This document shows, one piece after another, positions 14,511 to 60,403 of a stretch of 64,000 bases of DNA. Position numbers and translations under genes: made by a program. The DNA is taken from IMG/VR virus record IMGVR_UViG_3300009509_000008, positions 24,032 to 88,031 of that record; one strand, written 5' to 3'. Position 1 is the first letter of the stretch, and each line of letters opens with the position of its first letter. The stretch is from a virus. The notes beneath the pieces are model-generated. The model saw only the letters and a program-made list of their open reading frames with translations, ran no database searches and was not told the DNA's origin.

Positions 14511-14525
14511 CAGAAGCCTTATAGC
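14511..14525 (-). promoter_or_regulatory. putative phage promoter (ATAAG class)
   Basis: GCTATAAGGCTTCTG on minus strand; motif shared with six other intergenic sites. Confidence 0.6.
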
Positions 14526-14541
14526 GATACCCCTAGGTGCT

Positions 14542-14569
14542 TTGCCGATAGGTCCCAGAATGGTAGACT
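14542..14569 (+). promoter_or_regulatory. sigma70-like extended -10 promoter
   Basis: TTGCCG-N16-TAGACT with TG at the extended position. Confidence 0.45.
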
Positions 14570-14614
14570 TGGAGCGTATAGGGTGGTACTACCTGAAAGA
14601 ACAGTGGAGGAACG

Positions 14615-15820
14615 ATGATCGGATCACCAGGAGTGGTCGTTGACCCCTACGATGATGACTTCAAGTCTCTCAAGGACATGTTCAGCGGCCAGGAGATGCC
14701 TGAGTTCATAAAAGAAGCTGCGATCATGGATACCACAGACCTGCAGCTCCTTCCAGATCATGCGTTTGCGGTTGTTGTGCTCGGGCAGGGGGAGCCGATG
14801 CGCAAGTATGCCTGTACGGATAAGGCGCACACGGCCGTGAACGTGATGTATCTGCTCAGAAACGAGGATCGAATTCCTCATTCTGTGAAGATCAAGGCAG
14901 CAGCGAACCTCCTCAGAGCCTGCCATCACTATGGCCTAGAACCCGTTCCACAACTCATCAAGATGGCGCAAGGCGGAAAGCTCTTGATCAAAGGAGACGG
15001 AGCTGAGATTATCGTTCCGGGCGGCGATGGGGAGAAGACCTCAGAGGTCGTTGGCACCAGAACGATGCCCGTCACGAAGCCGGGGAAGAGGGTGAAGATC
15101 GCCAGCCTCATGGAGTCTCCCTACGTAGAGGTGGATTACATGGAGGAGAAGACAAAGACGGCCTCATACGACCCGAGCACGTCTGTCCTGAATGGCCAGC
15201 TCTCCCTCCTCCCATACGACAATGTGATCAAGGCTCGTGACTACTTCGAGGAGAACGGCATGTATATGCACCCTCGAGAGCGTCACGAGTACTGCATCAA
15301 GCTCGCTGCTCGAGCAGACCAGCTCGGAATCCCAATCTCCGAGACGGTCAGGAAGTATGGATCCACAACCTTCGCTCCACGTGGGTCGATCAAGGTGGCC
15401 TTCGAGCGCCGGTCTCAGCTGTGGAGTACTCTGGACGACCGAGTTGGGGACAGCCTCGCTGGAGACCTTCTCGAGAAGAGAGCGTCGATGGACCCAGAAC
15501 TCTTCGCCGAGACACTCGCCGAGCTCGACGCCCAGACTGGCATCGACCAGTATTGGGGCAACGAGATTCCAGATCCCTGGCTATCGGTGTTTGGACGAGA
15601 GAAGACAGCGTCCTGGAAGTGGGAGCAGTCGGGAGAGTACCTCACAGAGGATGCACTCAGACGCTTCGCTGCCGAGGGCGAAGACGAGATGCGTGAGAAG
15701 TTCGGGGAGGAGATGGCCAAGGGCTTTGCCAAGAACCCAACGACCATCTTTGACTCACTACCATTGGAACAGAAGCGAGTCATTGCTAGAATGGCCCAAC
15801 AGCAAGATTCAGGTCTGTGA
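14615..15820 (+). CDS. putative head/internal protein with repeated KxA motifs
   Basis: RBS GGAGG; IKEAA, IKMAQ, EKTSE, VKIAS, TKTAS, EKRAS, EKTAS. Confidence 0.65.
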   Translation: MIGSPGVVVDPYDDDFKSLKDMFSGQEMPEFIKEAAIMDTTDLQLLPDHAFAVVVLGQGEPMRKYACTDKAHTAVNVMYLLRNEDRIPHSVKIKAAANLLRACHHYGLEPVPQLIKMAQGGKLLIKGDGAEIIVPGGDGEKTSEVVGTRTMPVTKPGKRVKIASLMESPYVEVDYMEEKTKTASYDPSTSVLNGQLSLLPYDNVIKARDYFEENGMYMHPRERHEYCIKLAARADQLGIPISETVRKYGSTTFAPRGSIKVAFERRSQLWSTLDDRVGDSLAGDLLEKRASMDPELFAETLAELDAQTGIDQYWGNEIPDPWLSVFGREKTASWKWEQSGEYLTEDALRRFAAEGEDEMREKFGEEMAKGFAKNPTTIFDSLPLEQKRVIARMAQQQDSGL

Positions 15821-15843
15821 TCTGACCTGGGAGGAGACAGACA

Positions 15844-16581
15844 ATGAGTAAGAGCATGGGAGACCAGGGTCCGAGGATCGCTCACCTGGTCCACGCAGGA
15901 AAGGGCGGTCTCGCTGGAGAGATCGCTGACCTTCGCAGCGACACCGACAGGGCGATGGCCCTCTTGGAGGCAAGGGACGCCAGTCTCGACTTCCCCGAAC
16001 TCGATTACATCGACGGTGCGGGGCCGGCAGCTGCCGGAGGTGACATGGTCGTAGTGGGAAGAAATCTCCTCGATGGCCAGACCTTCGCCAGCCTGACGCT
16101 GGGAGCATCTCTCGACATCATCATGCGTGTGCCGGGTGAGGCCGGGAACGATGTCATCGTCGAGGTTGTCGATACCGGAGGCGCCGGTCCGGCCACCTAC
16201 GTGTGGACTCCGGCCACCAAGACGCTCACCATCGACCTCGTAGGGACGACCCCGGACGAGGACACCATCGCCACGGCCATCAACGACGCCGGCGTGGGAG
16301 CCCCCGTGCGAGCCAATTCGGGCGGCGGGGCAGCCTTCGGAACGGTGGCGGCACAGAATCTGTCCGGCGGCACAGGCTTGGGTTGGAGCTGCACGGTTGG
16401 TGGGTTCGACGCTCCGATCAAGTTCGACACTGGTGCGGCAACTTCCAACGCCAACCTCACCGAGACTCAGGCCACGGTGACGGTGCCGGCGTTGGCCCCG
16501 ATTGTGGCAACGGACAAGGCCCACGTCTATGCAACGGTCAACGGTGTGAGGGCTGAGCTCGGAGCAGTCGCAGTCGAGTAG
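15844..16581 (+). CDS. putative virion structural protein
   Basis: RBS GGAGG; acidic, G/A/T/V-rich beta-type composition like the sheath protein. Confidence 0.55.
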   Translation: MSKSMGDQGPRIAHLVHAGKGGLAGEIADLRSDTDRAMALLEARDASLDFPELDYIDGAGPAAAGGDMVVVGRNLLDGQTFASLTLGASLDIIMRVPGEAGNDVIVEVVDTGGAGPATYVWTPATKTLTIDLVGTTPDEDTIATAINDAGVGAPVRANSGGGAAFGTVAAQNLSGGTGLGWSCTVGGFDAPIKFDTGAATSNANLTETQATVTVPALAPIVATDKAHVYATVNGVRAELGAVAVE

Positions 16582-16589
16582 GAGTCCTA

Positions 16590-17570
16590 GTGCCTGACCT
16601 TCCGTACTACGAGGAGGAGCTCCGGAAGCTCCTCGGTGGGGTGCGCTCGAGTGAGGACGTAGAGTCCAAGGGTACGGAACCGGCCAAGCCCTACGTCGAA
16701 CAGCACGACGTCTCACTCGAGCTAGACGGACGTCCAAACCGCACGCCGGATGAGGACGAGCCGGACCTGTCTACTACGGACGAGGACCTCGAGGACGAGG
16801 AAACCCAAGAGGATGGGACGGAGTCTGGTGGAACACCAGTCCGAAAGCGGAATGTGTTCACACACCATGACTCCCATCCTCTCCTCTTGGATATGATCCT
16901 GCTCCGCAAGTACGGCCCCATCTGGCTTACGTGGGAGTCTGAAACGATCTGGGACATGATCGCAAAGGACTTCAAGCAGAACGTCAGCGCAAGCAACTCG
17001 AGCAAGATCCAGGCAGTCAAGACCTGCCATCTTGTAGAAACCCCATGGAAGGCGTGGGAAGCATTCAACCCAGTTTGTCAGTCCCTGAACAACAACATCC
17101 CCGATTTCAGATCGCTCCAGAAGCCAACGCCTGCTCAGGCGGTTCTGACAGTGCATCTCATGAACGTGATCAAGAAGGAGGAGTTCTCTCTCGAGGTCTC
17201 GAAGTACATCGCTGCGTGCTTCCTCGACGAGTCGATCTACTTCCTCCCACCACCAGTCGACTTCGCACAGAAGGAGGCGATGAGACTGCGATATCGTTGC
17301 CGAAAGTGCAATCGGATAGACGTCGACGAAGACAATGCGCTGTGTGACAGCTGCGGAGCTCCGCAGAGCCAGCTGGTGAAAGAACCAACTTGGGATCCTG
17401 AACCGGTCAAGAAGCGCTATAATGAGATCATAAAGCAGGGCGTGGATCATGATATCCTTCAGGAGACCGTGGTCGATGTCCAGGTAGCGCATCTTTTGGT
17501 GGCCAGGAACTATGTTGAGTTCCGAGACGGACAGCTCAAAGAGCAGGCAAAGGCGGTGGACCGTGGATGA
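16590..17570 (+). CDS. hypothetical protein with Zn ribbon
   Basis: RBS AGGAG; acidic N-terminus; CRKC...CDSC. Confidence 0.7.
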   Translation: MPDLPYYEEELRKLLGGVRSSEDVESKGTEPAKPYVEQHDVSLELDGRPNRTPDEDEPDLSTTDEDLEDEETQEDGTESGGTPVRKRNVFTHHDSHPLLLDMILLRKYGPIWLTWESETIWDMIAKDFKQNVSASNSSKIQAVKTCHLVETPWKAWEAFNPVCQSLNNNIPDFRSLQKPTPAQAVLTVHLMNVIKKEEFSLEVSKYIAACFLDESIYFLPPPVDFAQKEAMRLRYRCRKCNRIDVDEDNALCDSCGAPQSQLVKEPTWDPEPVKKRYNEIIKQGVDHDILQETVVDVQVAHLLVARNYVEFRDGQLKEQAKAVDRG

Positions 17571-18549
17571 GCACTCACTTGATTACGCCTTCGTAGATTC
17601 CCAAGTAGGAGAGTTCGAGAAGCTGGCTCTCCTGAACCCGATGAAGTGGAGCCAGGCCGGGAAGGGCCGTGCTATTGGCGCCCTCGCTACTGGATTGCTT
17701 GGTGCAGGAGCCGGCGCCGCAACAGCTCCTGAGGGAGAGCGAAGTCGTGGAGCTCTTCGTGGGGCGTTGGCTGGCGCCGCTCTCGGTACGGGAGCTGGTC
17801 AGCTTGCTACTGGTCAGGGACGACGGCAGGTTGGACGCTTCCTTCAACGCCAGGCTCACGGGCTGACGGGGTACATGCCTGGGGCTTATCAGAAAGAGAA
17901 AGGAATCCTGAGCGCATTTGGAAAAGGACTTGATCCGAACAAGCGACTCGATATCCTACGTAAGATGCGCTTCTCTGAGGTTCCAGAAGCAAAGAAAGTT
18001 GACGTCATCCGGTCGGCAGCCGAGGCCCTCGAGAAGGGGGACGTCCTCCAATCTGGTTTGGGCCAGGCTGCTTTGACTAAGCAAAAGGGCGGACTCATAA
18101 GTGGTCTGCTGCCTGAGAGTGTCCAGAAGCAGCTCGCTGGTCTCAGTGCTCGCCGAGACATAGCGAAGCTCGAGCAGGCCGAGAAAGGCCTCACGGCCGC
18201 CCCACAGTTTCTCCGACAGATGGTTCTTGATCCAAGGCGCACGGCAACAACTGGAGTACTCGCCGCAGGAGGCCTAGGCACTGGGTTGACTGTTGGCATG
18301 GCTGCGCCTCAGATGTATCAGGCGGCGAAGAACAAAGACCCCGAGGAGCTTGGTGCTAGCTTGGCAGAGACCGGACTGTACGCCATGTCTGGTGGGCTTC
18401 CCATGCTGGGATCCATGGCCCTCGGATCAGCAGCCCGCCGTATGGGCGGAGCTCCAGGATCGTTCTACAAGAAGATGCTTGCGAAGCGAGGAAAGCCCTC
18501 AGCAGAGCATGAGTATGAGCGTGTTGGTGCTGGAAGGTTGGTGGGCTGA
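17563..18549 (+). CDS. glycine-zipper protein with EFEKLA leader
   Basis: GTG 17563 overlaps upstream stop; AFVDSQVGEFEKLA then GxxxG-rich hydrophobic segments. Confidence 0.65.
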   Translation: MDEHSLDYAFVDSQVGEFEKLALLNPMKWSQAGKGRAIGALATGLLGAGAGAATAPEGERSRGALRGALAGAALGTGAGQLATGQGRRQVGRFLQRQAHGLTGYMPGAYQKEKGILSAFGKGLDPNKRLDILRKMRFSEVPEAKKVDVIRSAAEALEKGDVLQSGLGQAALTKQKGGLISGLLPESVQKQLAGLSARRDIAKLEQAEKGLTAAPQFLRQMVLDPRRTATTGVLAAGGLGTGLTVGMAAPQMYQAAKNKDPEELGASLAETGLYAMSGGLPMLGSMALGSAARRMGGAPGSFYKKMLAKRGKPSAEHEYERVGAGRLVG

Positions 18550-20492
18550 TGTTTGACTACCACCGCATACCGGCCCGACGAGCTGATACTGGCGGGCGTG
18601 TCGTCAACGGAATGGCTCTTCAGGGTGTTCACTACCCGTCCCCATTCTTTGACGTAGCGCACACGTATCTTCCTGCGACGATCAAGCAGATGTTCAGGTG
18701 GTGCAGATACTACTACCTCACGAATCCACTGATCGCTGCGACAGTCAACAAGATGGCCGAGTACCCAATCACGGACATCATTGTTGACGAGGACAACCAA
18801 GGGCTGAAGGAGAAGTGGGAGCGCTTCTTCGAGGACACCGTCCAGCTCAGGCCATTCCTCATCGAAGCTGGCCTGTTCTTCATGTGCTACGGAAACGCAA
18901 TGATCTCAATCAGCCACCCATTCATCAAGTGGCTGATTTGTCCGCACTGCCGCAAGAAGGTGCAAGCAACCAAAGCCAAGTTCCAGTTCCGGGAGACTCG
19001 ATTCTACCTACACTGTCCTCACTGCGGGGAGACCGGGGACGCAACGGCGTATGATCAGTACCTTCGCAGCCCAGACAAGATGCGGCTCATCCTCTGGAAT
19101 CCGGAGGACATCGAGCTCACCTACAACGACCTGACAGGAGAGACGAGGTACTACTACAGCGTTCCTCCGAAGCTCAAGAACCAGATCACCATGGGGAAGC
19201 GGGACATCGTCTGCAATATCCCACAGATCTTCATCGACTCTGTGAAGATGGAGAAGGCAGTCGTCATATCCCCAGACAATATCTTCCACTTCAAGCGCCC
19301 TTCCATCCTCACCGGACATCGGGATCGTGGATGGGGCGTCCCGATGATTCTGTCGGTGTTGAAGGATGTCTTCTACCTGCAGCTGATGAAGAAGGCGCAG
19401 GAGGCCATACTGCTCGAGCGCATCATCCCGCTCACGGTGATGTTCCCACAGCCTGGATCTGGTACGTCGGACCCATTCACTACTGTCAACCTACAGCAGT
19501 GGAAGGATCAGGTGGCCAGAGAGATCCAGAGGTGGCGTATCGACCGGAATTACATACCGATCATGCCGCTGCCCATTGGACACCAGGTCATCGGGGGAGA
19601 TGGCCGGGCCCTACTCATGAGCCAGGAGATCAAGATCTGGAGCGATCAGATCGTTGCTGGGATGGGCGTTCCGAACGAGTTCGTCTACGGTGGCCTACAG
19701 TGGAGCGGATCGAACGTGTCGATGCGCATGCTCGAGAACCAGTTCCTCGGGTACATTGCAGACCTCAGTCGGTTTGTTCGCACGTTCCTGGTGCCCAAAG
19801 TCAGCGCATGGCTTGGGTGGTCAAAGATCACGGCAAGGTTCAAGCCGTTCAAGATGGCTGATGACCTTCAGCGAAAGGCGCTGTACCTCCAGCTCAACCA
19901 GGGCGGGAAGATCAGCGACACGACTCTACTGCAGGACAGCGACTTCAATCCTGACGATGAGAATGAGCTCATGGCCAGCGAGACGGAGCAGCGGCTGCAG
20001 GCTGTCAAGAAGCAGCAGCTCGCTGAGGCCGAGATCCAAGGTGAGATGATGTTGCTGCAGGCCAAGTATCAAGCCAAGGCTCAAGTTGCGCAGCAGCAGG
20101 AGATGATGCAGGCCCAGCAGGGAGCGTCGGAGGCTGCTCCTGGAGAACCTGCCGAGATGGTTGGGTCTGAGCCAGTTCCAGGTGGAGCAGCTCCTCCTGG
20201 TCAACAGGGGGCTGGGCCGCCACCTGGGCCGCCATCAGGCATGCCGGGGGGACAACCACCGCCGGGCGTTCCTCCGCAGGAGATCGTCATGCAGCTGGCT
20301 CAGCGGCTGATGGCCATGGATCCTGAGGCGCAGCGCATGGCTATCCAGTCGTTGGCTCAACGAAGTCCCGAGCTTGCACGTGCGGTCATCCAGGTACTCC
20401 GCCAGACCATGGGTGCTGGAGGAGGCTCTGCTGGACTTCCCCTCCCGGAGCAGAGACCTCCCCGGCGTGGCCCAGAATCGGCGATCATATAG
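18549..20492 (+). CDS. portal protein
   Basis: YYYLTNPLIAATVNK, NIFHFK..GWGVP, IVAGMGVP..F; portal-like size and motif order; Q/P/G-rich tail. Confidence 0.75.
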   Translation: MFDYHRIPARRADTGGRVVNGMALQGVHYPSPFFDVAHTYLPATIKQMFRWCRYYYLTNPLIAATVNKMAEYPITDIIVDEDNQGLKEKWERFFEDTVQLRPFLIEAGLFFMCYGNAMISISHPFIKWLICPHCRKKVQATKAKFQFRETRFYLHCPHCGETGDATAYDQYLRSPDKMRLILWNPEDIELTYNDLTGETRYYYSVPPKLKNQITMGKRDIVCNIPQIFIDSVKMEKAVVISPDNIFHFKRPSILTGHRDRGWGVPMILSVLKDVFYLQLMKKAQEAILLERIIPLTVMFPQPGSGTSDPFTTVNLQQWKDQVAREIQRWRIDRNYIPIMPLPIGHQVIGGDGRALLMSQEIKIWSDQIVAGMGVPNEFVYGGLQWSGSNVSMRMLENQFLGYIADLSRFVRTFLVPKVSAWLGWSKITARFKPFKMADDLQRKALYLQLNQGGKISDTTLLQDSDFNPDDENELMASETEQRLQAVKKQQLAEAEIQGEMMLLQAKYQAKAQVAQQQEMMQAQQGASEAAPGEPAEMVGSEPVPGGAAPPGQQGAGPPPGPPSGMPGGQPPPGVPPQEIVMQLAQRLMAMDPEAQRMAIQSLAQRSPELARAVIQVLRQTMGAGGGSAGLPLPEQRPPRRGPESAII

Positions 20493-20493
20493 A

Positions 20494-20537
20494 GCTAAAA
20501 ACAGATGCCGGCCGAGCACTAGCCAGACCGGCACCTG
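20494..20537 (-). terminator. hairpin + TTTTTAGC
   Basis: CAGGTGCCGG-N16-CCGGCATCTG then TTTTTAGC. Confidence 0.7.
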
Positions 20538-20543
20538 CGGCTC

Positions 20544-20669
20544 TCAGGGTTCCTTCTCTTGGTCCCCCTCCCGCTCTGCCCTCCTCCGTTCAGCCTCCCG
20601 CATGATCAGATACTTTGATACCTGAGTTAGAAATACAGAGATGAACGAGAGGAGGAATAGCTCTACCAC
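20544..20669 (-). CDS. 41-aa single-TM peptide
   Basis: Not in track: MVELFLLSFISVFLTQVSKYLIMREAERRRAEREGDQEKEP; GTG overlaps upstream stop, GAGG RBS, ends just before the terminator. Confidence 0.5.
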   Translation of the reverse strand: MVELFLLSFISVFLTQVSKYLIMREAERRRAEREGDQEKEP

Positions 20670-20842
20670 TTCCTCTCATCATCGTCATTCGATGACGACC
20701 CCAATGGGGCAGAGAGGTCTACCGCTCCTCCTCTACCTCCTCCTAGAACAAGATCGTTCTCCATGCTCGAAAAGAAATCGTTCGAGCTCCATCCACTCTC
20801 CTGCTCTGACTTGACAGTCTTGTCCTGATCCTCTCTCACCAT
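20663..20842 (-). CDS. small acidic protein
   Basis: AAGGAAGGTG before ATG 20842; lies inside an ATAAG...TTTTTAGC unit. Confidence 0.5.
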   Translation of the reverse strand: MVREDQDKTVKSEQESGWSSNDFFSSMENDLVLGGGRGGAVDLSAPLGSSSNDDDERKW

Positions 20843-20896
20843 TTCCAATCACCTTCCTTGAGCCGTTGAGAGCTGGGATCTAAGCACTTGACCGTC

Positions 20897-20911
20897 TAAA
20901 TCACTTATAGC
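20897..20911 (-). promoter_or_regulatory. putative phage promoter (ATAAG class)
   Basis: GCTATAAGTGATTTA. Confidence 0.6.
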
Positions 20912-20918
20912 GAATTCA

Positions 20919-20948
20919 TTGACCAACCTATCTGTAGGCTGCTACATT
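20919..20948 (+). promoter_or_regulatory. sigma70-like promoter of the RNAP operon
   Basis: TTGACC-N18-TACATT with extended TG, 29 nt before the ATG. Confidence 0.55.
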
Positions 20949-20977
20949 GAATTTCAGCAGACATATAGGAGAGATCG

Positions 20978-23900
20978 ATGGCAAGACTCGATCCCCGAGA
21001 GGGCTTTGACGTTCTCAAGGACAGGGTAACCGAGGCCATTTCGAGCAACTTCCCGCAAGAGGGAAGGTTCCATACGATAGAGCTCGAAGGCGTGCAGATC
21101 AAGGATGATCTGGACATAAATGATATCGAGAGCCAGAAGAAGGCTAAGCTTCGTGGAACTACCTTCGGCGTTCCGGTGACGGCCACCATGGTCTTGAAGG
21201 ACAAGGCCTCCGGAAAGGTGATCGAGAAGAAGACGCTGAAGGTTGCTACCCTTCCCAAGTACACCAGAAGACATTCGTTCATCGTCAAGGGCTCGGAATA
21301 CCAAGTCGACAGCCAATGGCGGCTGAAGCCTGGGATCTACACCAGGGTGGCTCAGAACGGTGAGCTTCAATCTCGATTCAACTTCCAAGGCAAGCAAGCT
21401 TTGGATATGACCTTTGATCCGAAGACCAAGGTGTTCAGGATGAAGCACGGAGGATCTAAGCCTCCGCTGTACCCAATCCTCAAGGCGGTCGGAGTAGATG
21501 ACGACACGATGCAGGCCGCTTGGGGTAAGGATATCCTGAACGCAAACAAGACAACCCCGAAGGGAAAGTCGCTCAACGTAGAGAAGCAGGCTGTGAACTT
21601 CGCTAAGCGCCTCGATCCACGAGCCGACATCAACTCGTTTGACGATGCGTCTGACGTTATTCGCAGCTACATGGAGGATGCCGAGCTCCGTGAAGACGTT
21701 ACCAAGCTGACTCTCGGCAAGGGCTTCAAGAAGATCACGCCGGAGGTGCTTACACGATCCTCCAAGAGGCTGCTCGGCGTAGCTCGTGGCGACGAGAAAC
21801 CGGATGTCCGTGACGCCTTGATGTTCAAGGACCTGCTCAGCGTCGAGGACTTTATAGCTGAGCGTATGGGCGAGGGTACTAAGACCATTCAGCGGAGAAT
21901 CGGAAACAATCTAGACCGGCGCAACACCCTCCGTGAGATCGTCGGTCCCGATGTTTTTGACAAACCCATAAGAGAGTTCTTCTCCAAGAGCTCGCTTGCC
22001 AACACCCCGCAGCAGACGAACCCGCTCGAGATGCTAAGTGGCCAGCAGAGAACGACCATAACAGGCGAGGGTGGGGTCAAGGATGCCCACAAGATCATGG
22101 AGGACGCCAAGCTGGTGGACCCATCACACTTTGGTATCCTCGACCCACTCCACACACCAGAGTCCGATAAGACTGGTGTGTCGCTCCACCTCAGCACCAG
22201 CGCTGTGAAGAAGGGCAAGACCGTAGCTCTACCGCTCGTCAACGTGAAGACTGGAAAGGTAGAGCTCCTCGATCCCAAGCAGATCAACGAGTCAGTCATT
22301 GCCATGCCGGACGAGGGTCGGTGGAAGGACAACAGGTGGGTTCCAGGAGGAAGGAAGGTCAAGGCTTCTGTTCCGGGAAACGAGATCAGAGAGGTCAATT
22401 CCAAGGACGTCAAGTACGTCATGGGCAACACCGGCCAGATGTTCTCGATTGCTACGAACATGGTTCCGTTTCTGAACTCCGACTCGCCGAACCGCTCCAC
22501 GATGGCAGGTAGGCACATGGAGCAGGCGATACCGCTCAAGAATCCAGAGGCCCCGCTGGTCCAGTCGGATCGAGGAGATGGAAGATCGTACGACGAGTTC
22601 GTCGGCCGCTACGCTTCGCATGAGGCCCCTGTTGCTGGGAAGGTGACTAAGGTCGAACCTGGCGCCATCCATATCAAGGGGGCAGATGGGAAGAGCCAGA
22701 AGGTTCAGATCTACGACAACTATCCGCTGAACGACAAGAAGGGCGTCCTACACAGCACCCCAAAGGTCAAGGTGGGGGACCAGGTAAAGTCTGGCCAGCT
22801 CATCGCTGACAGTAACTACACCAAGGACGGAGTCTACGCACCTGGCACCAACATGCGTGTTGGATACACTCCGTGGAAAGGCTACAACTTCGAGGACGGT
22901 GTTGTGATCTCGGAGACCGCCGCTCAGAAACTAACCTCCGAGCACCTGTACAAAAAGAGCCTCTCTACCAAAGAGGCTCAGGCTGTAGGTCTGAAGAAGT
23001 TCATGGCCAACAAGTCCACGTCTCTCACCAAGGAGCAGATGGAAAAGCTCGGAGACGACGGGATCATCAAGCCAGGCATGAAGGTTCACAAGGGGGACAC
23101 GCTGATAGCGGCACTGGCAGAGAGGGCACCAACAACTGAAGCGCAGATGTTGAAGAACCTCCATCGAAGCCTGGCCAACCCCTACGACAACAGATCGATC
23201 ACCTGGGACGAGGATCACGAAGGTGAGGTGGTCTCGATCAGCAAGAAGGGGAAGAACATACAAGTCCACGTTCGCACAGCCGAGTCCATGCAGGTTGGCG
23301 ACAAGCTCGTAGGTCGTCACGGAAACAAGGGAATCGTCACACGCATTCTCCCAGATCATGAGATGCCGCAGACGGAGGACGGCAAGTCCCTCGAGGTGGT
23401 CATGAATCCAATCGGCATCGCTGGTCGGATGAATGTTGGCCAGGTCCTCGAGACCGCAGCTGGTAAGCTGGCTGAGAAGGAGGGCAAGCCCTATAAGGTT
23501 CAGAACTTTGGCGAAGGCGATAACCGAACCAAGGTGGAGAAGGATCTGAAGAAAGCAAAGATCGCCGACAAAGAGACAATCATCGATCCGGTGAACAACA
23601 AGAAAATCCCCGGCGTTCTGGTGGGCAACCAGTACATTCTCAAGCTCCAGCACCAGGTCGACAAGAAGATGATGGCTCGATCAAGGGACGGGTACGACAG
23701 AAACCTCGTGCCCAAGGGTGGAGGACATCACGGAGCTCAGGCGCTCGGTTCCCTTGGAATCTATGCCATGCTGGCTCACGGAGCTAAGGCCAACGTCCGT
23801 GAGATGCAGACGATGAAGAGTGACAAAGCTCAGAACGACGAGGTCTGGGCTGCACTCCAAGCCGGGGAGCCGATCCCTCCCCCACAAACGACCTTCGCCT

Positions 23901-27157: not shown

Positions 27158-27161
27158 GAGA

Positions 27162-27596
27162 GTGATCATGGACGACAGGGACTATCGGTTGGCGATGTAC
27201 CAATCCTTCTTCGATGAGCTCGCCTCGATCGAGAAGAACGCTATGCTCCAGAAAGAGGCCGTCGGTGGCTGGGGAGCAGTAACGGGCGCTCTCGGTAAGG
27301 CCAGAAAGTTCATCGGCGAGGGCGTGGGTCAGTGGAGAAAGACTGGCCTTGGCGGTGGACTCCAGACTCTGAGAGAGACTGGCCAACGAGCCGCAGGGGC
27401 AGCGCCCGAGGGAGCCGGCATGTTCCAGAGGGCTGGGCATGCGTTGTTCGGCTCCAAGGGAGGGGCGCCCGGCATCCTGCAGACCCAGATGGGACAGACT
27501 GCTGCAGCGGGACTTGGTGCGGCTGGCCTAGGCGCCGGAGCACTCGGCGGCGGAGCTCTCGCCCTGCGTGGTATGAGAGGACAGCAGCAGCAATGA
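27162..27596 (+). CDS. small glycine-zipper protein with FFDEL..KxA leader
   Basis: SFFDELASIEKNAMLQKEA; C-terminal Gly/Ala hydrophobic helix. Confidence 0.7.
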   Translation: MIMDDRDYRLAMYQSFFDELASIEKNAMLQKEAVGGWGAVTGALGKARKFIGEGVGQWRKTGLGGGLQTLRETGQRAAGAAPEGAGMFQRAGHALFGSKGGAPGILQTQMGQTAAAGLGAAGLGAGALGGGALALRGMRGQQQQ

Positions 27597-28120
27597 ACGC
27601 CTACCAGAGGGCCATGTACGAGGGGTTCTTCGAGGAGCTTCTTGATATGCAGAAGGTAGCTATGGACCACGGCCGCCTTCCGCCAACCATGATCCTCAAG
27701 CTGGCTGACTTTGCTCCTGGCGTCTCGGGGCCTGCTCTTGACTATGCCAGAGGTCTCGGAGCGAAGTCGGTGATGGATCTGGATGACAAGCAGCTGGTAG
27801 AGTTCAGCCGCAGAATGGGGCTCAACCAAGAAGCAATCGAGACGGCAATGCCCTCTGCCGCAAAGCTTCCTGGAGGGTCGCAGGCTCCGTCGTTGCCAAA
27901 GACTGTGGTAACGTCCGGTACCATGGTTGGTGGAGCTCCTGGCACCGCAGCGAAGGCTGGCTTCTTCAAGCGAATGGGCACTCGTATGAGAAGCATGAGC
28001 CCTAACCTTCGTCGGTTCGGAGGTGCGGCAGCCCTACTTGGCGGAGGCGGACTTGCGCTTGGAGGCGCAGCAGCGCTGGCAAAGAGCAGACGACAACCCC
28101 CACTTCCGCAGGCGGCCTGA
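27593..28120 (+). CDS. small glycine-zipper protein with FFEEL..KVA leader
   Basis: ATGA overlap at 27593; GFFEELLDMQKVA; C-terminal GGAAALLGGGGLALGGAAAL. Confidence 0.7.
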   Translation: MNAYQRAMYEGFFEELLDMQKVAMDHGRLPPTMILKLADFAPGVSGPALDYARGLGAKSVMDLDDKQLVEFSRRMGLNQEAIETAMPSAAKLPGGSQAPSLPKTVVTSGTMVGGAPGTAAKAGFFKRMGTRMRSMSPNLRRFGGAAALLGGGGLALGGAAALAKSRRQPPLPQAA

Positions 28121-28123
28121 TCA

Positions 28124-29308: not shown

Positions 29309-29595
29309 TGGCACTAGACGCAGCAACACTGGCTACGATCATTACCGTAAAGTACAAGGCGAAGATGAGAGCAGCCTTCCCTGATGAGCTAAAGGGAGGT
29401 ACTGTAACTCAGATCCCAAAAGAGGACGGTAGTGTAGAATATAACCTAGAGGAGCAGAGAGGCCCGATCGAGATCGACGAGGAGGGCTTCATGCCGTTGG
29501 CCGAGGCGATAGCTGAGGCAGTGGTAGAACACTTGAAGGCCAGTGGGACGATCGCAAACATCACCACTGGAACGAGTACAGGGAGGATCACATGA
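29305..29595 (+). CDS. small protein following the spike
   Basis: Overlap-coupled on both sides. Confidence 0.6.
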   Translation: MMALDAATLATIITVKYKAKMRAAFPDELKGGTVTQIPKEDGSVEYNLEEQRGPIEIDEEGFMPLAEAIAEAVVEHLKASGTIANITTGTSTGRIT

Positions 29596-32521: not shown

Positions 32522-32529
32522 GGAGACTG

Positions 32530-32991
32530 GTGATGGAAAACAAGCCACACGTCAGCGAGGATCGGAAGAAAGAGCTCTTCCGAAAGATGGGCATAGACGA
32601 AGTCGGTGGAACGGCAGCGGTAGATCTCAAGGTGTTTGAGATCGGTCACCTTCACACGGAGTATATCTGTGATGAGGGTGACCTGCTCATGCACTTCTTC
32701 TGGAGAAAGCCGCCACCGAAGGGAGCACCACCGGTCCGTGACCCAGGAAACGGAATGCCGCTGCAGGACAACTATGCTCCGTGGCCTCACGGATTCCGAG
32801 AGAGGCTGTGGTCTAGCACACTCGAGACGTTCAAGCTCATGGATGAGAAGCATCGAGTCGAGCTCGAGTGGATCTCTGAGTTCCAGAGCTGGTGTGTCTT
32901 CGTCAGAGGCGTCGCCAAGATCATCACCCCTCCTCAGCCCATGCTCGTCAAGCTTGCTACAGAGTCTATTGGACCAGAGCTCGATAACTAG
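32530..32991 (+). CDS. hypothetical protein
   Basis: RBS GAGGAG. Confidence 0.65.
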   Translation: MMENKPHVSEDRKKELFRKMGIDEVGGTAAVDLKVFEIGHLHTEYICDEGDLLMHFFWRKPPPKGAPPVRDPGNGMPLQDNYAPWPHGFRERLWSSTLETFKLMDEKHRVELEWISEFQSWCVFVRGVAKIITPPQPMLVKLATESIGPELDN

Positions 32992-33028
32992 CTAAGAAGA
33001 ATGCCAGGTGGTGGGACTTAGTCCTGGC
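32991..33028 (-). terminator. hairpin + TTCTTCTTAGC
   Basis: GCCAGG-N14-CCTGGC then ATTCTTCTTAGC. Confidence 0.5.
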
Positions 33029-33236
33029 AGGGATGCTCGGCCGGCTGGCAGTTGAGCTCTCTCAACCGGCCTTGCAGGTGGTAGTCATCGATCATCCCAA
33101 CCACTCGGGACGATGACGTGCTGAGGTAGGCTCCGCACTCCGGGCAGCGGTACTCCTTCTTTCCGAGAGCCATGTGGAGCATCTGCCCGTCGTTCGGACA
33201 GTTCTCTGGCTCATATTGGTACGTTGAGTTCTCCAT
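33018..33236 (-). CDS. small Zn-ribbon protein
   Basis: RBS AAAGGAGG; CPND...CPEC. Confidence 0.65.
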   Translation of the reverse strand: MENSTYQYEPENCPNDGQMLHMALGKKEYRCPECGAYLSTSSSRVVGMIDDYHLQGRLRELNCQPAEHPCQD

Positions 33237-34402: not shown

Positions 34403-34432
34403 AGTGACCTCCTGGCTAAGGGTGATCTCCTC

Positions 34433-34447
34433 TAGAGCACTTATAGC
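34433..34447 (-). promoter_or_regulatory. putative phage promoter (ATAAG class)
   Basis: GCTATAAGTGCTCTA. Confidence 0.6.
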
Positions 34448-34482
34448 CTTGCCTAGATCATAATTGTGGTAAGGTACTGTAG

Positions 34483-36318: not shown

Positions 36319-36324
36319 TGACCA

Positions 36325-36401
36325 GGTAAGAAGGAACCCCGAGGTCCCTGGCGGCGGGCTGACCTTTCGGTCAGGCGCACAGGGATAGTTCCTCGGGTTC
36401 C
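36325..36401 (-). terminator. long compound hairpin + TTCTTACC
   Basis: Nested stems GGAACCC.GAGG/CCTCGGGTTCC, TCCCTG/CAGGGA, CTGACC-TTTC-GGTCAG (plus-strand reading). Confidence 0.65.
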
Positions 36402-36441
36402 GTTACAGACGTTGGGTCGGACCAGATCGAATCGCCGATGG

Positions 36442-37127: not shown

Positions 37128-37142
37128 CAAAAATCTTATGCC
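37128..37142 (-). promoter_or_regulatory. putative phage promoter (ATAAG class)
   Basis: GGCATAAGATTTTTG. Confidence 0.6.
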
Positions 37143-37167
37143 AAGAGAATGCTCTAATTTTGACTAT

Positions 37168-53212: not shown

Positions 53213-56200
53213 ATGGCGAGCATCCCAGAGCTTCCAGAGCCCGGCGTACAGGTCTACCAGGAGTTCAGGACTGTCAGTCCGAGCATCGCCGTGCCCACGC
53301 TGGTGCCGTGCGTTGTCGGTGTGTGCAAGGAGATCAGGGAGCTCTACAACTCCGATCTGACCTTGAACTCGGACATCATCGTCCGGGGCCCGGCAATTGC
53401 GACCGCTACCATCGATGATGACCCAGCGTACAACTTGGCCAACAAGACGCTGAGCCTCAGGGTCAACGGAGGTGTGGAGCAGAGCTTCACGTTCCCAGGA
53501 ACAGCGACGGCCATGAGTGCACAGGACGTGGCGTCGTTCATCAACACGTACACTCCGCTGCCACAGGGCTTCGCAGCGTACGTCTATGAGGATGAGAGCG
53601 ACAATCTGTACCTCCAGCTCAGAACCTCCGGTTCGGGCGGAGAGACAGACGCCATCCAGCTCCTCTATGACGACGCTGCTCCGGTCTTCGGCTGGGGCTA
53701 CGGTCAGTTCTTCTACGGGATCGGGAACTACATCCAAGACAGGGTGTACCTCAAGCAGGAGAGCTTCCCAGATCCTCGTGGGAACCTCGAGGAGCTCAAC
53801 ATCGATGAGGACAGCATTCGTGTCTTCTTCGATCTGAGCACCGAGGTTCGTGAGGTGCTGCAGACCGAGTCCTACCTGCGCAGGGGCACGACCATTGCGG
53901 CGGTGGATGACAACGACGGTGATCAGCTCACCCCGTACGTGGCGATGTCCGGCGAAGACTTCAAGGCCTTGCCGACCTCGGCGCTCGTTGACGGATCCGT
54001 CGACTTGAATGGCAACAGGCAGCAGATCAACCAGCAGATTCTGGCAGTACAGCTCGACGGCGGCGGAAAGCAGTTCGTCAAGTTCTACGGCATCGGAATC
54101 ATCTCGCTGGACATCTCGGCGGCCTTCGCCTCCATCACAGGCAACGACCTCGTTCTGAAGGTGAACGGCGTCACGGTCACGATCAGCAGCATCACAGCAG
54201 CCAACATCGCCGACCTCGTCATCGAGATCAACACGGCGACGCAGGCCGCTGTTGGAGCTGATGTCGTGTACCAGAGCGACATCGACGGAGCTGCCAACGG
54301 TTCCGGGAACTACATCACGTTCCTGTACGGAGCCGTTCCGACTGCCATCGACCGTGACTCTGCTGTCAGCGTCGAGACCGGAACCACTCCGGCGCTCGAG
54401 ACGGCGATGTTCGGCATCGGGTCCTTCCCCATAGAGCAGCCGCTCTGGGGTGACCACACGACAGTCGCAGGTGGCAATCTCGCAGGAGGTCCCTTCGAGA
54501 ACCATGACATCGAGACTCAGATCGATGCGGTCTTCGGGGCGACGGTTGCTTCCATCGAGGCGTCGCCGGCGCCGACCAACCACCTCAGGCTCACAAGCCC
54601 GAGGTCCGGAGAGTCGGACTCGAAGGTCGAGATCCTCGCATCTCCAGACAGCACGACGACCTGCCTCACCGCACTAGGTCTCACCGCCGGTGTGACCTAC
54701 GGTAACCCGTTCAAGGTCCGAGTCGGTGACTACCTCTACGCTGACGGCACGTACGTCGGCATGATCATCGAGGTTCACCCCGGCGCAACGGCCGGACAGC
54801 TGAAGCTGGACCAGGAGGTCAGCACGCAGACCAGCGTGTGGAACCCATCGAGCTGGTACATCATCGCCAAGAACCTGAATGCGGTTGCGAGCGCTCAGTG
54901 GGGCGTCACGGTTCCTCGTCCGGATCTCATGATCGACAACAACGGAGACGTCATCATCAAGCATGACTTCCTCCGTGACACGACCGGAGCTCCGATCTCA
55001 GTGACGGCGGTGCCTGTCTACTGCATGTACGAGGCCCTGCGTCTCGATGTCACCGGGGAGGCCCAGAACCCATCTCTCCTGTCGTTCAACTCGACGACGG
55101 ACCTCGAGGCGGCACTCGACCCCGTCTCTCCGGACAACCCGCTCTCTTACGGGTTCTTCTGCGCCATCGGGAACGCTAACGGTGTCAGCGTCACCGGCAT
55201 CGGCGTCGACGAAGCGACGGCTGACAAGCCCTACGGGACCTTGGCCGGCTTCACCGCTGCCTTCGAGTTCCTCAAGCCCAAAGAGGTCTACGCTGTCGCT
55301 CCGCTGTCATCGGATCTCGACGTTGCACTGGCTGCTCAGCAGCATGCCAACACAATGAGCGATCCGGAGCAGAAGGGTGAGAGGATAGCCATCGTCCACC
55401 TCGGAACGCCGACTCGGAAGGTCGACACCTTGGTGGCCTCCGGCAATGACGGCGACTCGGTCTCCGGTGGACCGCCCTACTACTTCGATACCAAGATCAG
55501 CACCTTGTCTCAGGCTCTCCTGGCACAGGGAATCGATCCAACATCGGCGTTCACGGCGGCCGAGGGAGTGTTCCTCGACCTGGGGACGGATGACAAGAAC
55601 TACAACATCATCGGACCTGTGCTCGACGGCACCAAGGTCAAGCTGAACTTCGGCTTCTCGCCTGGCCAGAACGATGATGCCTTCTACACGGAGTCCACCG
55701 CTGACTGGACTGCCCAGCTCCCGATCGTCAGTGCCAGCTACTCTGTGAAGATCAGGGGCACCGTCGTCGCCAGCAAAGACGAGGAGATCGAGGCCATCTA
55801 CTACAAGGGACAGGGCTTCAAGGATCGCCGAGTGTGGATGCAGCAGCTCGGTCAGCTCGTCGCCACCGTCAACAGCGTGGATCAGCTCATCGAAGGCTTC
55901 TACATGAACGCCGCCAAGGCTGGCATGGTTGGAGGTCTTCCGCCGAGCCAGCCGCTGACTCGGTACCCCATCGCCGTCTTCACCGGGGTCACGGATACCA
56001 AGGAGCGGTACACCACCAGCCAGCTCAACCAGGGAGCGGCCGGCGGAGCCGACTGGGTCATCCAGCCGAGTGAGGGAGCTCCGCTCACCTCGAGGCACCA
56101 GGTCACGACAGACTTGACCAGCATCGAGAAGCGTGAGCAGTCGATCGTCAAAGCCGTCGACTTCTGCGCCAAGTTCTTCCGAATGGGACTTGATCAGTAC

Positions 56201-56416
56201 ATAGGTCGGTACAACATCACGCCGGCCTATCTCGATACACTCTCGACTGTTGTCCAGGGCTTCGCCAGGTGGCTGGTCGAGGAGGGGAAGGTGGTTATGG
56301 CTGCCAACCTCAACAACCTGGTGCAGAGCGAGGATAGCCCGGACACGGTCCTCATCGACGTCAGCCTCGAGGTATTCTACCCAGGCAACTACCTGCGACT
56401 CACGCTGGTGGTATGA
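53213..56416 (+). CDS. contractile tail sheath protein with insertion domains
   Basis: N-terminal PGVQVYQE; C-terminal RHQVTT...REQSIVKAVD...YPGNYLRLTLVV. Confidence 0.88.
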   Translation: MASIPELPEPGVQVYQEFRTVSPSIAVPTLVPCVVGVCKEIRELYNSDLTLNSDIIVRGPAIATATIDDDPAYNLANKTLSLRVNGGVEQSFTFPGTATAMSAQDVASFINTYTPLPQGFAAYVYEDESDNLYLQLRTSGSGGETDAIQLLYDDAAPVFGWGYGQFFYGIGNYIQDRVYLKQESFPDPRGNLEELNIDEDSIRVFFDLSTEVREVLQTESYLRRGTTIAAVDDNDGDQLTPYVAMSGEDFKALPTSALVDGSVDLNGNRQQINQQILAVQLDGGGKQFVKFYGIGIISLDISAAFASITGNDLVLKVNGVTVTISSITAANIADLVIEINTATQAAVGADVVYQSDIDGAANGSGNYITFLYGAVPTAIDRDSAVSVETGTTPALETAMFGIGSFPIEQPLWGDHTTVAGGNLAGGPFENHDIETQIDAVFGATVASIEASPAPTNHLRLTSPRSGESDSKVEILASPDSTTTCLTALGLTAGVTYGNPFKVRVGDYLYADGTYVGMIIEVHPGATAGQLKLDQEVSTQTSVWNPSSWYIIAKNLNAVASAQWGVTVPRPDLMIDNNGDVIIKHDFLRDTTGAPISVTAVPVYCMYEALRLDVTGEAQNPSLLSFNSTTDLEAALDPVSPDNPLSYGFFCAIGNANGVSVTGIGVDEATADKPYGTLAGFTAAFEFLKPKEVYAVAPLSSDLDVALAAQQHANTMSDPEQKGERIAIVHLGTPTRKVDTLVASGNDGDSVSGGPPYYFDTKISTLSQALLAQGIDPTSAFTAAEGVFLDLGTDDKNYNIIGPVLDGTKVKLNFGFSPGQNDDAFYTESTADWTAQLPIVSASYSVKIRGTVVASKDEEIEAIYYKGQGFKDRRVWMQQLGQLVATVNSVDQLIEGFYMNAAKAGMVGGLPPSQPLTRYPIAVFTGVTDTKERYTTSQLNQGAAGGADWVIQPSEGAPLTSRHQVTTDLTSIEKREQSIVKAVDFCAKFFRMGLDQYIGRYNITPAYLDTLSTVVQGFARWLVEEGKVVMAANLNNLVQSEDSPDTVLIDVSLEVFYPGNYLRLTLVV

Positions 56417-58263: not shown

Positions 58264-58289
58264 GGTAAAAAGCCCGTCACTGCGGCTCC
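58264..58289 (-). ncRNA. candidate ~26-nt RNA
   Basis: GGGATAAGATCTAC^G promoter motif (58289-58303) followed directly by an AGCC..GGCT hairpin and TTTTACC. Confidence 0.4.
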
Positions 58290-58313
58290 GTAGATCTTAT
58301 CCCCAAAGAATTA

Positions 58314-58832
58314 TTACTTTTTCTTCCACCAGTCGTCTGACTGGTCACCGACAATTGGGAGTGTCTCGACCGACCCTAACGGGGTGAGCGCCGGATTCGG
58401 AGCTACTAGCTGGGTGAGGATGTCCTCACGCCGTCGAACTGGGTCAAGGCCCTCTTCGTCGAGCTCGTCGTCCTCGTCGACCTGCTCGAGCAGCTGCGGA
58501 GGGGGAGCTGCAGCCTCGGTGAAGAAGTCCTCGGCGAGCTGGAAGATGAGATCCGTGTGTGGGTAGCCGTTGGCAATGGCCTCAAGGTACTCAGTCTGCT
58601 CTCTGTCCCACAGCTCGGGCCGGTTGTGGGCCATCTGGGCGAACTCTTGGGGTGTGATACCCAGTTCGCCGAGGATTCCTGCAAACTGGGTATCCTCTTC
58701 CCTGGGCCTGGCCTGAAGGCTCCTATGGAGCTCGGCCGTGATGGCCCCTTTGGACTTCGGTCTGAGGTATGCCATGAGCTCGAGCAGCCCAGCTCTCTCG
58801 TCTGGTGGTCCTGTGATGAAGCTGCTACTCAT
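58314..58832 (-). CDS. hypothetical acidic protein
   Basis: ATGA overlap; 172 aa. Confidence 0.65.
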   Translation of the reverse strand: MSSSFITGPPDERAGLLELMAYLRPKSKGAITAELHRSLQARPREEDTQFAGILGELGITPQEFAQMAHNRPELWDREQTEYLEAIANGYPHTDLIFQLAEDFFTEAAAPPPQLLEQVDEDDELDEEGLDPVRRREDILTQLVAPNPALTPLGSVETLPIVGDQSDDWWKKK

Positions 58833-59621: not shown

Positions 59622-59648
59622 GGATCACCTCCTACCTCATTGTAGCAG

Positions 59649-59731
59649 GCTAAGAAGAAAAAAGAGCGTCGGACTCACTCTCCCCTGCTGGGGCCCCCAA
59701 CCTCGAGCATTTCCTGACTTCGGACTTCCGC
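59649..59731 (-). ncRNA. candidate ~83-nt small RNA
   Basis: GTCATAAGATCTTT^G promoter motif (59731-59745); ends AGAGTG-N7-CGCTCT + TTTTTCTTCTTAGC; no credible ORF. Confidence 0.5.
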
Positions 59732-59762
59732 AAAGATCTTATGACGAATTCCCCCCGTTTTT

Positions 59763-59960
59763 TCATTCGGAGTTCACGATGTCGTTGAAGCGCTTCTTCC
59801 TCTCCTTATTTCTCAGCAGCTCCTCATACGCATCGATTGCCGCTTTGCAGAATTCCTCCATGTTGGAGGCTCCGTGGATTACCAGGCCGGCATTGGTCTT
59901 TCCCTGGCTTAGTAATGAAACGAAGCACGTATCCTCTTTCACAATGAATATGCGCTTCAT
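59763..59960 (-). CDS. small hypothetical protein
   Basis: RBS GAGGTG. Confidence 0.55.
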   Translation of the reverse strand: MKRIFIVKEDTCFVSLLSQGKTNAGLVIHGASNMEEFCKAAIDAYEELLRNKERKKRFNDIVNSE

Positions 59961-59972
59961 CTGACCACCTCA

Positions 59973-60338
59973 TCATTGGATCTCCTCATTGTCATCGAAC
60001 CCCTCGTCCTCTACCCCCTTTGTTCCCTTGAAGAGACAGCCAGTGTGTACCTCCCTGATGAGCGCCTGAGCTATGTCGATCTTGAACTGCTCAACCTGCC
60101 TTCTGGTTCTCACGTCTTCTCTCAGTTTGTTGATCGTTCTTCTCAGTCGTCTCTTCACTTCGTTCCCAGACATGTACCACTCCAGCCGATCCTCCTCTGT
60201 GTGGAGGAACACCTCGAGGTTTCCGTTGCTGAGTCCGATGTGAAAGGCAGGACAGAGGTCGCAATGTACGGTAGGATCTACCTGTGCTATCAATTTCGCC
60301 AGTGACTGCTTACTCACTGCCACCTCCCCAAGGAACAT
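59973..60338 (-). CDS. hypothetical protein (CxxC)
   Basis: HCDLCP; the start may be internal, after GGGAGG. Confidence 0.55.
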   Translation of the reverse strand: MFLGEVAVSKQSLAKLIAQVDPTVHCDLCPAFHIGLSNGNLEVFLHTEEDRLEWYMSGNEVKRRLRRTINKLREDVRTRRQVEQFKIDIAQALIREVHTGCLFKGTKGVEDEGFDDNEEIQ

Positions 60339-60388
60339 CGTGGTCTTTGAGAGCTACAATCGATCGATCACAATACCAACACCCTGTT

Positions 60389-60403
60389 GGTATAAGGACT
60401 GTG
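60389..60403 (+). promoter_or_regulatory. putative phage promoter (ATAAG class) inside an inverted repeat
   Basis: GGTATAAGGACTGTG. Confidence 0.55.

Follow-up and report, generated by a model that had tools for sequence, protein, structure and literature searches.

The ATAAG sites described here lie in a 64,000-nucleotide stretch of phage DNA (the window), which comprises bases 24032-88031 of the linear IMG/VR record IMGVR_UViG_3300009509_000008 (88,031 bp, CheckV completeness 48%). By every computational criterion available the sites are promoters: they are intergenic, they point in the same direction as the next gene or RNA, and they are syntenic with sites in related phages. The motif is lineage-wide: it is found, with a bias to the strand opposite to the gene of the phage RNA polymerase (RNAP), in all relatives examined, with the exception of Vibrio phage D181, whose matches are strand-biased and not enriched. 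We think it probable that the ATAAG sites are promoters of non-structural genes and are read by a phage sigma factor working on the phage's own, virion-delivered RNAP. The relatives compared are G002, which is the closest, G001, G003, G004, G006 to G010, the cultured Salmonella phage Arash and D181; the record itself is G000.

In the window, the exact pattern GNNATAAGNNNTNYR is found at seven sites, all between genes, with the positions and strands given in a preliminary description of this DNA. Dinucleotide-shuffled versions of the window held 0.64 such sites on average (standard deviation 0.77, maximum 2), and none of 100 shuffles reached seven. The whole record contains eight sites, one forward and seven reverse, compared with one forward and one reverse for the pattern read backwards. 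When the T that follows ATAAG by four bases is dropped from the pattern, all eight matches of the resulting GNNATAAGNNNNNYR are intergenic, as against none of the two matches of its backwards control, and intergenic sequence makes up 5.4% of the record. The seven sites of the preliminary description are thus confirmed. The T itself is particular to this genome, being present at 8/8 sites here, at 4/6 in G002 and rarely in G001. Genes were called by a codon-usage gene caller written for this analysis, complemented by family scans, and by this caller the intergenic share is 3.6% in G002 and 7% in G001. Since the caller labels some promoter-like sites as coding (G002 64163, G001 22961, G003 76863), the intergenic counts are lower bounds.

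A co-directional start codon lies 21-110 nucleotides (nt) downstream, that is, within 200 nt, at six of the eight sites. The eighth site, outside the window, is 113 nt upstream of an Rfam tRNA match. Neighbours of the pattern with one mismatch occur at the level of chance (17 in total, 10 of them new, against 20.9 expected). Counting of k-mers between genes places ATAAG among the top 5-mers in both G000 and G001, a test that is weak when taken alone because generic AT-rich or stop-containing words also rank among the top 5-mers. The near match noticed earlier inside the primase gene is real; it lies at 6638-6652 on the minus strand, departs from the pattern at its last position, and falls in coding sequence conserved in G002. 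A check for variants in contigs of four DNA runs gave one variant inside a motif. This change, 20899 A>G, is found in contigs of two other runs; it falls at -2 of the 20897 promoter, where the motif is degenerate.

What could be the anatomy of these promoters? Taking the final purine of the motif as +1, the preliminary description had placed the first A of ATAAG at -11; the arithmetic is correct, and the A is at -11 only under this choice of start. That description does not list a further box, CAA(A), which spans about -33 to -30. The layout then consists of CAA(A), a G at -14, TATAA or NATAA at -12 to -8, a G at -7 and, after five more bases, a pyrimidine-purine (YR) step. Among 25 intergenic sites from G+C-rich genomes, 14 carry [CA]AA[AG] starting at -34 to -32 (background probability 0.025), an upstream box of the sigma70-family spacing of 17 +/- 1. 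Most sites of this record have A at -32 and -31, in the form of GCAAAG, TCAAAA, GAAAAA or CACAAT. No CAA-type upstream box is evident in the aligned sites of the AT-rich G004. A TG is found at -15/-14 in G004 and Arash. The base at -7, which is T in host sigma70 promoters, is G at 8/8 sites in this record. In Arash, of which 109.5 kb were covered, TGGTATAAN ends in G 16 times, in A 3 times, and in T and C once each. All 15 of the 16 G-ending Arash sites that were viewed in context have the YR step after N5, so that the geometry is constant in these 15 and in the eight sites here.

Housekeeping sigma70 promoters follow the consensus TTGACA-N17-TGnTATAAT, in which the T at -7 is near-invariant. 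The phage sites resemble them in four respects: a box that precedes the -10 word by about 18-19 nt, the G at position -14, TATAA, and a purine start 6-7 nt further on. They differ in that the phage word ends in G instead of T, in that the upstream box is (G)CAA(A) rather than TTGACA, and in that the word is constant across genomes of very different G+C content. Promoters of sigma-28 (FliA/WhiG, group 3) have the consensus TAAA-N15-GCCGATAA. The phage arrangement CAAA-N15-GNNATAAG, i.e. CAAA, 15 nt and G-N-N-ATAAG, has a near-equal spacing and the ATAA core in common with it, but the ATAA register is shifted by one base and GCC is absent. That a sigma is the likelier reader of the sites is suggested by the two-box layout of the sigma70 family together with the sigma70-family proteins encoded in the lineage, and these observations tell against the earlier proposal that the sites are recognition signals of the fused RNAP itself.

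A further word, CTTAG(C), was considered as an inverted copy of the -10 word in leaders and was dropped; 11 of 55 CTTAG are intergenic and their distance to the start is not fixed. Counts of the hexamer CTTAGC on the minus and plus strands are 20 and 4 in G000, 17 and 8 in G002, and 1 and 7 in G001, whose orientation is reversed.

The comparison with relatives shows that the word recurs across a phage lineage, and the term 'private' that the preliminary description had given to it does not apply. A protein search with the RNAP retrieved 39 related viral loci, of which 20 (including the near-duplicate pairs L012/L033 and L013/L014) were inspected upstream of the RNAP gene. The ATAAG word was present there in divergent orientation in 19 of the 20; the RNAPs of these loci are 34-70% identical to the one described here, and some of the genomes are AT-rich. 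The word is spelled in the same way in phage genomes whose G+C content ranges over 39-68%, and its sites are conserved at syntenic places. Intergenic hits number 6/12 in G002, with 0/1 for the backwards control, 8/10 in G001 (control 0/3), 3/4 in G003 (0/0) and 19/45 in G004 (2/24); several of the hits in relatives that count as coding are obvious arrangements of promoter, ribosome-binding site and ATG, and many copies in G004 precede a ribosome-binding site.

The complete genomes G006-G010, five in number and about 186 kb long, encode a fused RNAP that is 44-45% identical to the one described here. Hits and backwards controls number 19 and 16 in G006, 38 and 20 in G007, 29 and 11 in G008, 28 and 9 in G009, and 26 and 8 in G010. 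In all five the majority strand of the hits is opposite to the RNAP gene, and one ATAAG site lies 62-86 nt upstream of that gene. In Arash all 18 copies of TGGTATAAG are on the reverse strand (18 and 0 for the two strands, compared with 0 and 1 for the control). Sixteen of the 18 sites were checked against the GenBank annotation (139121 and 171072 being left out), and all 16 lie in short gaps between minus-strand genes or tRNAs. In the complete, AT-rich genome of G004, many ATAAG promoters on the minus strand (e.g. 379, 737, 1770, 11029) stand directly after a terminator made of a hairpin and a T run and before small open reading frames (ORFs), and the one at 111543 precedes a tRNA; the arrangement has the look of an early-gene array.

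The RNAP of this phage is a single chain of 2059 amino acids (aa) that matches Pfam Rpb2_6 at 1.3e-60, as well as Rpb1_2 and Rpb1_5, and solved bacterial beta' chains at E-values down to 1e-104. It carries NADFDGD at residue 1384, and its beta' part retains a clamp-helix-like stretch which, by comparison with E. coli, we take to be the docking place of sigma region 2. Over residues 6-1473 the Arash RNAP is 34% identical to it. In the cultured D181 (L131, OZ196140.1 144071-152053) the RNAP frame is split over several ORFs, annotated as hypothetical, with a homing endonuclease gene between them.

Diverged members of the sigma70 family are found in G001, G003, G004, G006-G010 and Arash (gp10), and every relative at least 71% complete encodes a sigma70-family protein. 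The family is present in 38 viral loci, several of them on complete contigs of 185-196 kb. Single members fall mostly below the Pfam and NCBIfam cut-offs; the SigB/F/G and FliA/WhiG models are matched at sub-threshold level. When 21 members are combined in a profile, it matches the solved SigA, RpoD, RpoS, SigB and FliA, with SigA best (E = 5.1e-19), and the alignment spans regions 2-4 (profile positions 26-233 of 236); FliA is matched at E = 3.5e-8, SigA and RpoD better (5e-19). In 9/9 genomes in which both were located, the genes of sigma and RNAP have the same orientation. In the available part of the Arash paper (PMC10585845), mass spectrometry of virions gives 3516 spectra for beta gp206, the most of any protein, 1210 for beta' gp216, and 467 with 24 unique peptides for the sigma Gp10; gp196 is not in the table.

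How the ATAAG sites may work can be proposed from these observations. In this genome the ATAAG promoters head the replication operon, the thymidylate-synthase-like block, small ORFs and a tRNA-like RNA. A sigma of the lineage's own would read both boxes, with the G at -7 excluding host sigma70, and would work on the phage RNAP. RNAP and sigma would be late products that enter the virion and reach the cell together with the DNA, and the ATAAG units would therefore be transcribed first. The units would end at a hairpin followed by a short T/C-rich run, to which TTAGC or TTACC may add a signal. A more specific version, in which a self-contained, virion-delivered holoenzyme of bacterial type (the single-chain beta-beta' enzyme and a sigma dedicated to it) has the -10 pocket of its sigma retuned from T to G at -7 and stops at hairpins whose conserved YTTAGC/YTTACC tail would assist termination by its sequence, is one that we put forward tentatively.

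Several points weigh against the proposal of a phage sigma on a phage RNAP. The pattern GNNATAAGNNNTNYR was derived from the same sites that were counted in the shuffle test, and therefore the other genomes are the fair test. Among these, D181 shows no enrichment of GGTATAAG (8 matches against 9 for the control), yet 7 of the 8 are on one strand. None of the listed sequencing runs that hold this DNA is recorded as RNA, and starts, transcript ends and timing are predictions. Searches with Pfam Sigma70_r2/r4, the G004 sigma and the sigma-family profile found no sigma gene in the 88-kb record or in G002, which are 48% and 43% complete; the sole exception was a weak r4/helix-turn-helix match at the N-terminus of the product of 37168-37911, which Pfam scores as a generic helix-turn-helix. 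A tblastx comparison of the 38 sigma loci with G000 and G002 gave no overlap that would extend the contig. Judging by G001 and Arash, a sigma gene of this phage would be expected 58-71 kb to the right of its RNAP gene. A sigma in this phage is thus argued from relatives whose RNAPs are at most 45% identical to its own. The complete relatives hold further sigma70_r2 ORFs, G004 an RpoD-like sigma and Arash a second, RpoS-like sigma (gp196), and because of these additional sigmas we infer, rather than observe, that the ATAAG sites belong to the gp10-type sigma. The Arash virion list comprises 116 proteins including ribonucleotide reductases, and the paper itself, in the part available, notes possible carry-over (PMC10585845); with metabolic enzymes on the list, carry-over of abundant non-virion proteins is possible. 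The word TGnTATAAG keeps five of the six positions of the host -10 consensus plus the TG, so some use by host sigma70 is possible. Finally, the core enzyme used by a phage sigma could equally be that of the host.

The last point is the alternative that survives best: a phage sigma would redirect the host core RNAP to the ATAAG sites, and the phage RNAP would serve another promoter class or stage. We consider this a possibility of limited but real weight. The capture of host core enzyme by phage sigmas is a textbook case (T4 gp55, the SPO1 sigmas), and both the sigma-type geometry and the sigma family of the lineage fit it equally well. Jumbo phages with sigma factors lack an RNAP, and those that encode an RNAP lack sigma, according to the part of Iyer et al. 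2021 (PMC7824862) that was available. What speaks for the phage's own core is that in this lineage the sigma is always paired with its own beta/beta' (5/5 complete genomes, and also G001, G003, G004 and Arash), that sigma and RNAP were detected together in the Arash virion preparations, as far as the available part of that report goes, and that the phage beta' retains the putative docking stretch for sigma.

That the fused RNAP could recognise ATAAG alone, without a sigma, was the reading of the preliminary description, and we regard it as improbable. The non-canonical RNAPs of phages of the phiKZ and AR9 type recognise short motifs close to the start site in such a way. The reading would agree with the failure to find a sigma gene in this record, 48% complete as it is, and sigma-less multisubunit RNAPs of phages do exist, as the available parts of two reports describe (PMC7598289, PMC9209446). 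Against it stand the second conserved box, about 19 nt upstream of ATAAG at the spacing of the sigma70 family, a sigma70-family protein in every relative at least 71% complete, and an RNAP that, by the Rpb2_6 and beta' matches given above, is much nearer to bacterial enzymes than jumbo-phage enzymes are.

It is also quite unlikely that the host sigma70 holoenzyme uses the sites as extended -10 promoters and tolerates their final G. Extended -10 promoters tolerate weak elements, and TGGTATAAG fits TGnTATAAT everywhere but at the last position. The G at -7, however, is present at all eight sites here and outnumbers T by 16 to 1 in Arash, whose host is Salmonella, and the spelling stays constant over genomes of widely different G+C. 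Moreover, the same genomes hold a second class of sites, with T at -7, before the RNAP and virion genes.

On the plus strand, the RNAP and virion genes appear to carry ordinary host-type promoters (TTGACC-N18-TGnTAnnnT), for which the statistical support is modest. The promoter before the RNAP gene is the sole sigma70-like match in 20000-38500, compared with 7.1 +/- 3.0 in shuffles, i.e. such matches are depleted. In this record TGnTAnnnT words stand before 14615, 34483, 37911 (minus) and 60338 (minus), the first two being conserved in G002, and such words are also found upstream of the RNAP gene in relatives. The host-type TGNTANNNT is modestly enriched between genes (10 of 49 matches, p = 2.6e-4).

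That the word is the binding site of a regulator or of a replication or packaging protein, and no promoter, is very improbable in view of an orientation that follows the downstream gene or RNA, the distance of 21-110 nt to the start codon, the YR step at a fixed distance, and the many copies in G004 that stand directly after a terminator and before a ribosome-binding site.

Where could transcription from the ATAAG promoters end? The preliminary description had five units ending in a hairpin followed by the tail TTYTTASC. The tail occurs 8 times in the window against 2.22 expected, and 0/100 shuffles reach 8. Of the 11 matches in the whole record, 10 are minus-strand; the six that fall between genes are each preceded by a predicted hairpin (-7.9 to -29.6 kcal/mol). 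Ends of minus-strand units are marked by the elements at -2732 (outside the window), 20494, 32991, 36325 and 58264, of which the one at 58264 closes no gene-bearing unit. At -2732, 5 nt separate the stem from TTCTT. The element at 59649 could be an attenuator or a leader structure and not the end of a unit, because G002 shares the leader blocks around it, and its leader continues without a break to the ribosome-binding site. The hairpins are real, and two of the five, at 58264 and 59649, do not end a unit with genes.

The layout of an intrinsic terminator, with a G+C-rich hairpin, an immediate T run and a position at the 3' end of a unit, is found at 20494, 32991 and 36325, and we infer that the elements are terminators of the intrinsic type with short, interrupted T runs. 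They share with intrinsic (Rho-independent) terminators the G+C-rich hairpin followed by a T-rich run at unit ends, and differ from them in that the T runs are short and interrupted (TTCTT) and followed by A-G/C-C, and in that two copies lie in leaders, each just behind a promoter. On the complementary strand the tail at 20494 reads TAG AGC TAA, the tandem in-frame stop of the convergent portal-like gene; at 32991 the last C of the tail lies opposite the G that ends the TAG stop codon of convergent gene 32530-32991. Stops of convergent genes thus account for the tail at 20494 and touch that at 32991; they do not account for those at 36325, 58264, 59649 and -2732. In relatives, YTTAG(C/T) follows the terminal hairpins of four minus-strand units of G002, and a T run plus AGC follows several hairpins of Arash, where TTTTAGC has 9 minus-strand and 3 plus-strand copies and TTTTAGG is equally frequent. 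An extension TTAGC/TTACC as an added sequence-specific signal is therefore suggestive only. With an ordinary layout of hairpin and T/C-rich run, two tails that overlap or abut convergent stops, and modest statistics, the 'sequence-specific terminator tail' of the preliminary description is not upheld. Of its interpretation as a whole, the promoter behaviour and the ownership of the sites by the phage lineage are supported, and the private character, the recognition by the fused RNAP and the sequence-specific tail are not supported in the form given.

The features discussed here are collected in the table below.

Table. Promoters, hairpin elements and genes of the window, in window coordinates. 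Promoter spans run from -36 to +1, and start sites are predicted from the geometry of the motif.
Feature	Position	Strand	Remarks
ATAAG-class promoter, replication operon	14511..14547	-	GGCAAAG box at about -34 to -28, GCTATAAG, predicted +1 G 14511; G002 ortholog 16676
ATAAG-class promoter, divergent from RNAP gene	20897..20933	-	without CAA box; heads small acidic ORF 20663-20848
ATAAG-class promoter	34433..34469	-	unit 34402 to 33018 encodes two proteins (289 and 92 aa); G002 ortholog 35543
ATAAG-class promoter	37128..37164	-	gene 37074-36442 (210 aa); between two minus-strand genes; G002 ortholog 38159
ATAAG-class promoter, orphan	58289..58325	-	no gene behind; weak hairpin and TTTTTACC directly after
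ATAAG-class promoter	59731..59767	-	leader of about 110 nt before gene 59621-59055; leader blocks conserved in G002 (63488)
ATAAG-class promoter, sole one on plus strand	60367..60403	+	heads 60424 onward, including thymidylate-synthase-like gene
tRNA-like RNA behind eighth promoter	L001 1322-1388 = record 21097-21163, outside window	-	Rfam tRNA 42.1 bits, gathering score 29
Host-type promoter of RNAP gene	20919..20948	+	TTGACC, 18 nt, TACATT preceded by TG
Extended -10-like word TGGTAGACT	14561..14569	+	upstream of plus-strand operon from 14615; conserved in G002 at 16726
Extended -10-like word TGGTAAGGT	34467..34475	+	upstream of terminase large subunit gene; G002 ortholog TGGTAAGAT at 35567
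Hairpin (-29.6 kcal/mol) and TTTTTAGC	20494..20540	-	end of small acidic-ORF unit
Hairpin and TTCTTCTTAGC	32991..33029	-	end of unit starting at 34433
Long hairpin and TTCTTACC	36325..36402	-	end of unit starting at 37128
Weak hairpin and TTTTTACC	58264..58288	-	after last minus gene (58314), 18 nt after predicted start of promoter 58289
Hairpin and TTCTTCTTAGCC	59649..59690	-	in leader between promoter 59731 and start codon 59621
Replication operon	14475 leftward, beyond window start	-	helicase, primase, DnaB-like helicase, DNA polymerase, UvsX-like recombinase (family scans)
Portal-like gene	18549-20492	+	
Single-chain beta-beta' RNAP, 2059 aa	20978-27157	+	structural strand; candidate core enzyme
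Terminase large subunit	34483-36318	+	
Major head protein	44992-46119	+	
Tail-sheath-like gene	53213-56416	+	
Thymidylate-synthase-like gene	61706-62545	+	Pfam 3.5e-11, C-terminal half only

This genome has gene blocks of two kinds: the minus strand carries a long replication operon and several short islands, the plus strand the virion genes. Behind the orphan promoter at 58289 there is only a 14-codon ORF that lacks a ribosome-binding site. Its ortholog in G002, at 62073, has the same small hairpin and T run and precedes a gene of 138 aa; the gene therefore seems to have been lost here, with the promoter and the leader hairpin kept. Neither the window nor L001 contains a tRNA called by ARAGORN, which thus passes over the sequence scored by Rfam behind the eighth promoter. 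This tRNA-like sequence lies in a region of about 1 kb with no called genes.

The ORF 20663-20848 on the minus strand encodes a small acidic protein with about 14 D/E against 6 K/R in 61 aa, which could be a host-takeover protein; relatives, too, have a D/E-rich coding sequence at this place. The gene 37168-37911 on the minus strand encodes a protein of 247 aa with an N-terminal helix-turn-helix (HTH_17 0.0015, weak Sigma70_r4) that may be a regulator; this gene is preceded by a host-type TGCTACTAT word (37936-37944) instead of an ATAAG site. The thymidylate-synthase-like gene, in the sole plus-strand ATAAG unit, could encode a nucleotide-modifying enzyme. Two plus-strand genes end in tandem in-frame stops (20490-20498 and 36316-36321), the portal-like gene in TAG AGC TAA and the terminase gene in TGA TGA; at the equivalent place the portal-like gene of G002 ends in TAG GAC TAA. 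GAATTC is over-represented between genes in G000 (10/34). This DNA is carried by sequencing runs from seven studies, labelled as marine sediment, soil and sediment.

If the proposal of a phage sigma on a phage RNAP is right, these phages would carry a complete orthogonal transcription system made of bacterial-type parts, namely core, sigma, promoter and perhaps terminator. A single base of the -10 word, that at -7, would separate the units read by the phage from those read by the host on the same DNA, and would provide a natural test case for the selection of this base by sigma region 2. The system would represent a second route to independence from host transcription, besides the sigma-less enzymes of jumbo phages. 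With it, early or non-structural units could be annotated directly in a widespread and mostly uncultured group (marine sediment, soil, sewage), and the cultured member Arash makes the idea testable now.

Literature searches with the motif word and with phage RNAP, sigma and promoter, which did not extend to supplementary tables, gave no paper describing these promoters. The word promoter is absent from the available part of the Arash paper (PMC10585845), and the words promoter, sigma and terminator are absent from the main text, as available, of the paper on multisubunit-RNAP-encoding Caudovirales (mReC; Weinheimer and Aylward 2020, PMC7481178). The phage described here resembles the mReC, as presented in that text, in being a tailed phage whose beta/beta' homologs are found with cellular RNAP models and carry NADFDGD. 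Its genome layout is similar to that of phages with other virion-delivered RNAPs, such as the virion RNAPs of N4 and phiKZ/AR9, gp66 of crAss-like phages and the P23-45 TMP-RNAP, in that the RNAP gene lies among late or virion genes and a distinct promoter class heads the others. A further likeness is that in Arash the RNAP was the most-detected protein of the virion preparations according to the available part of that report (PMC10585845). The RNAP of this lineage is unlike those enzymes in that the enzyme is near to bacterial beta/beta' and in that a sigma would travel with it, the evidence from particles being that of Arash.

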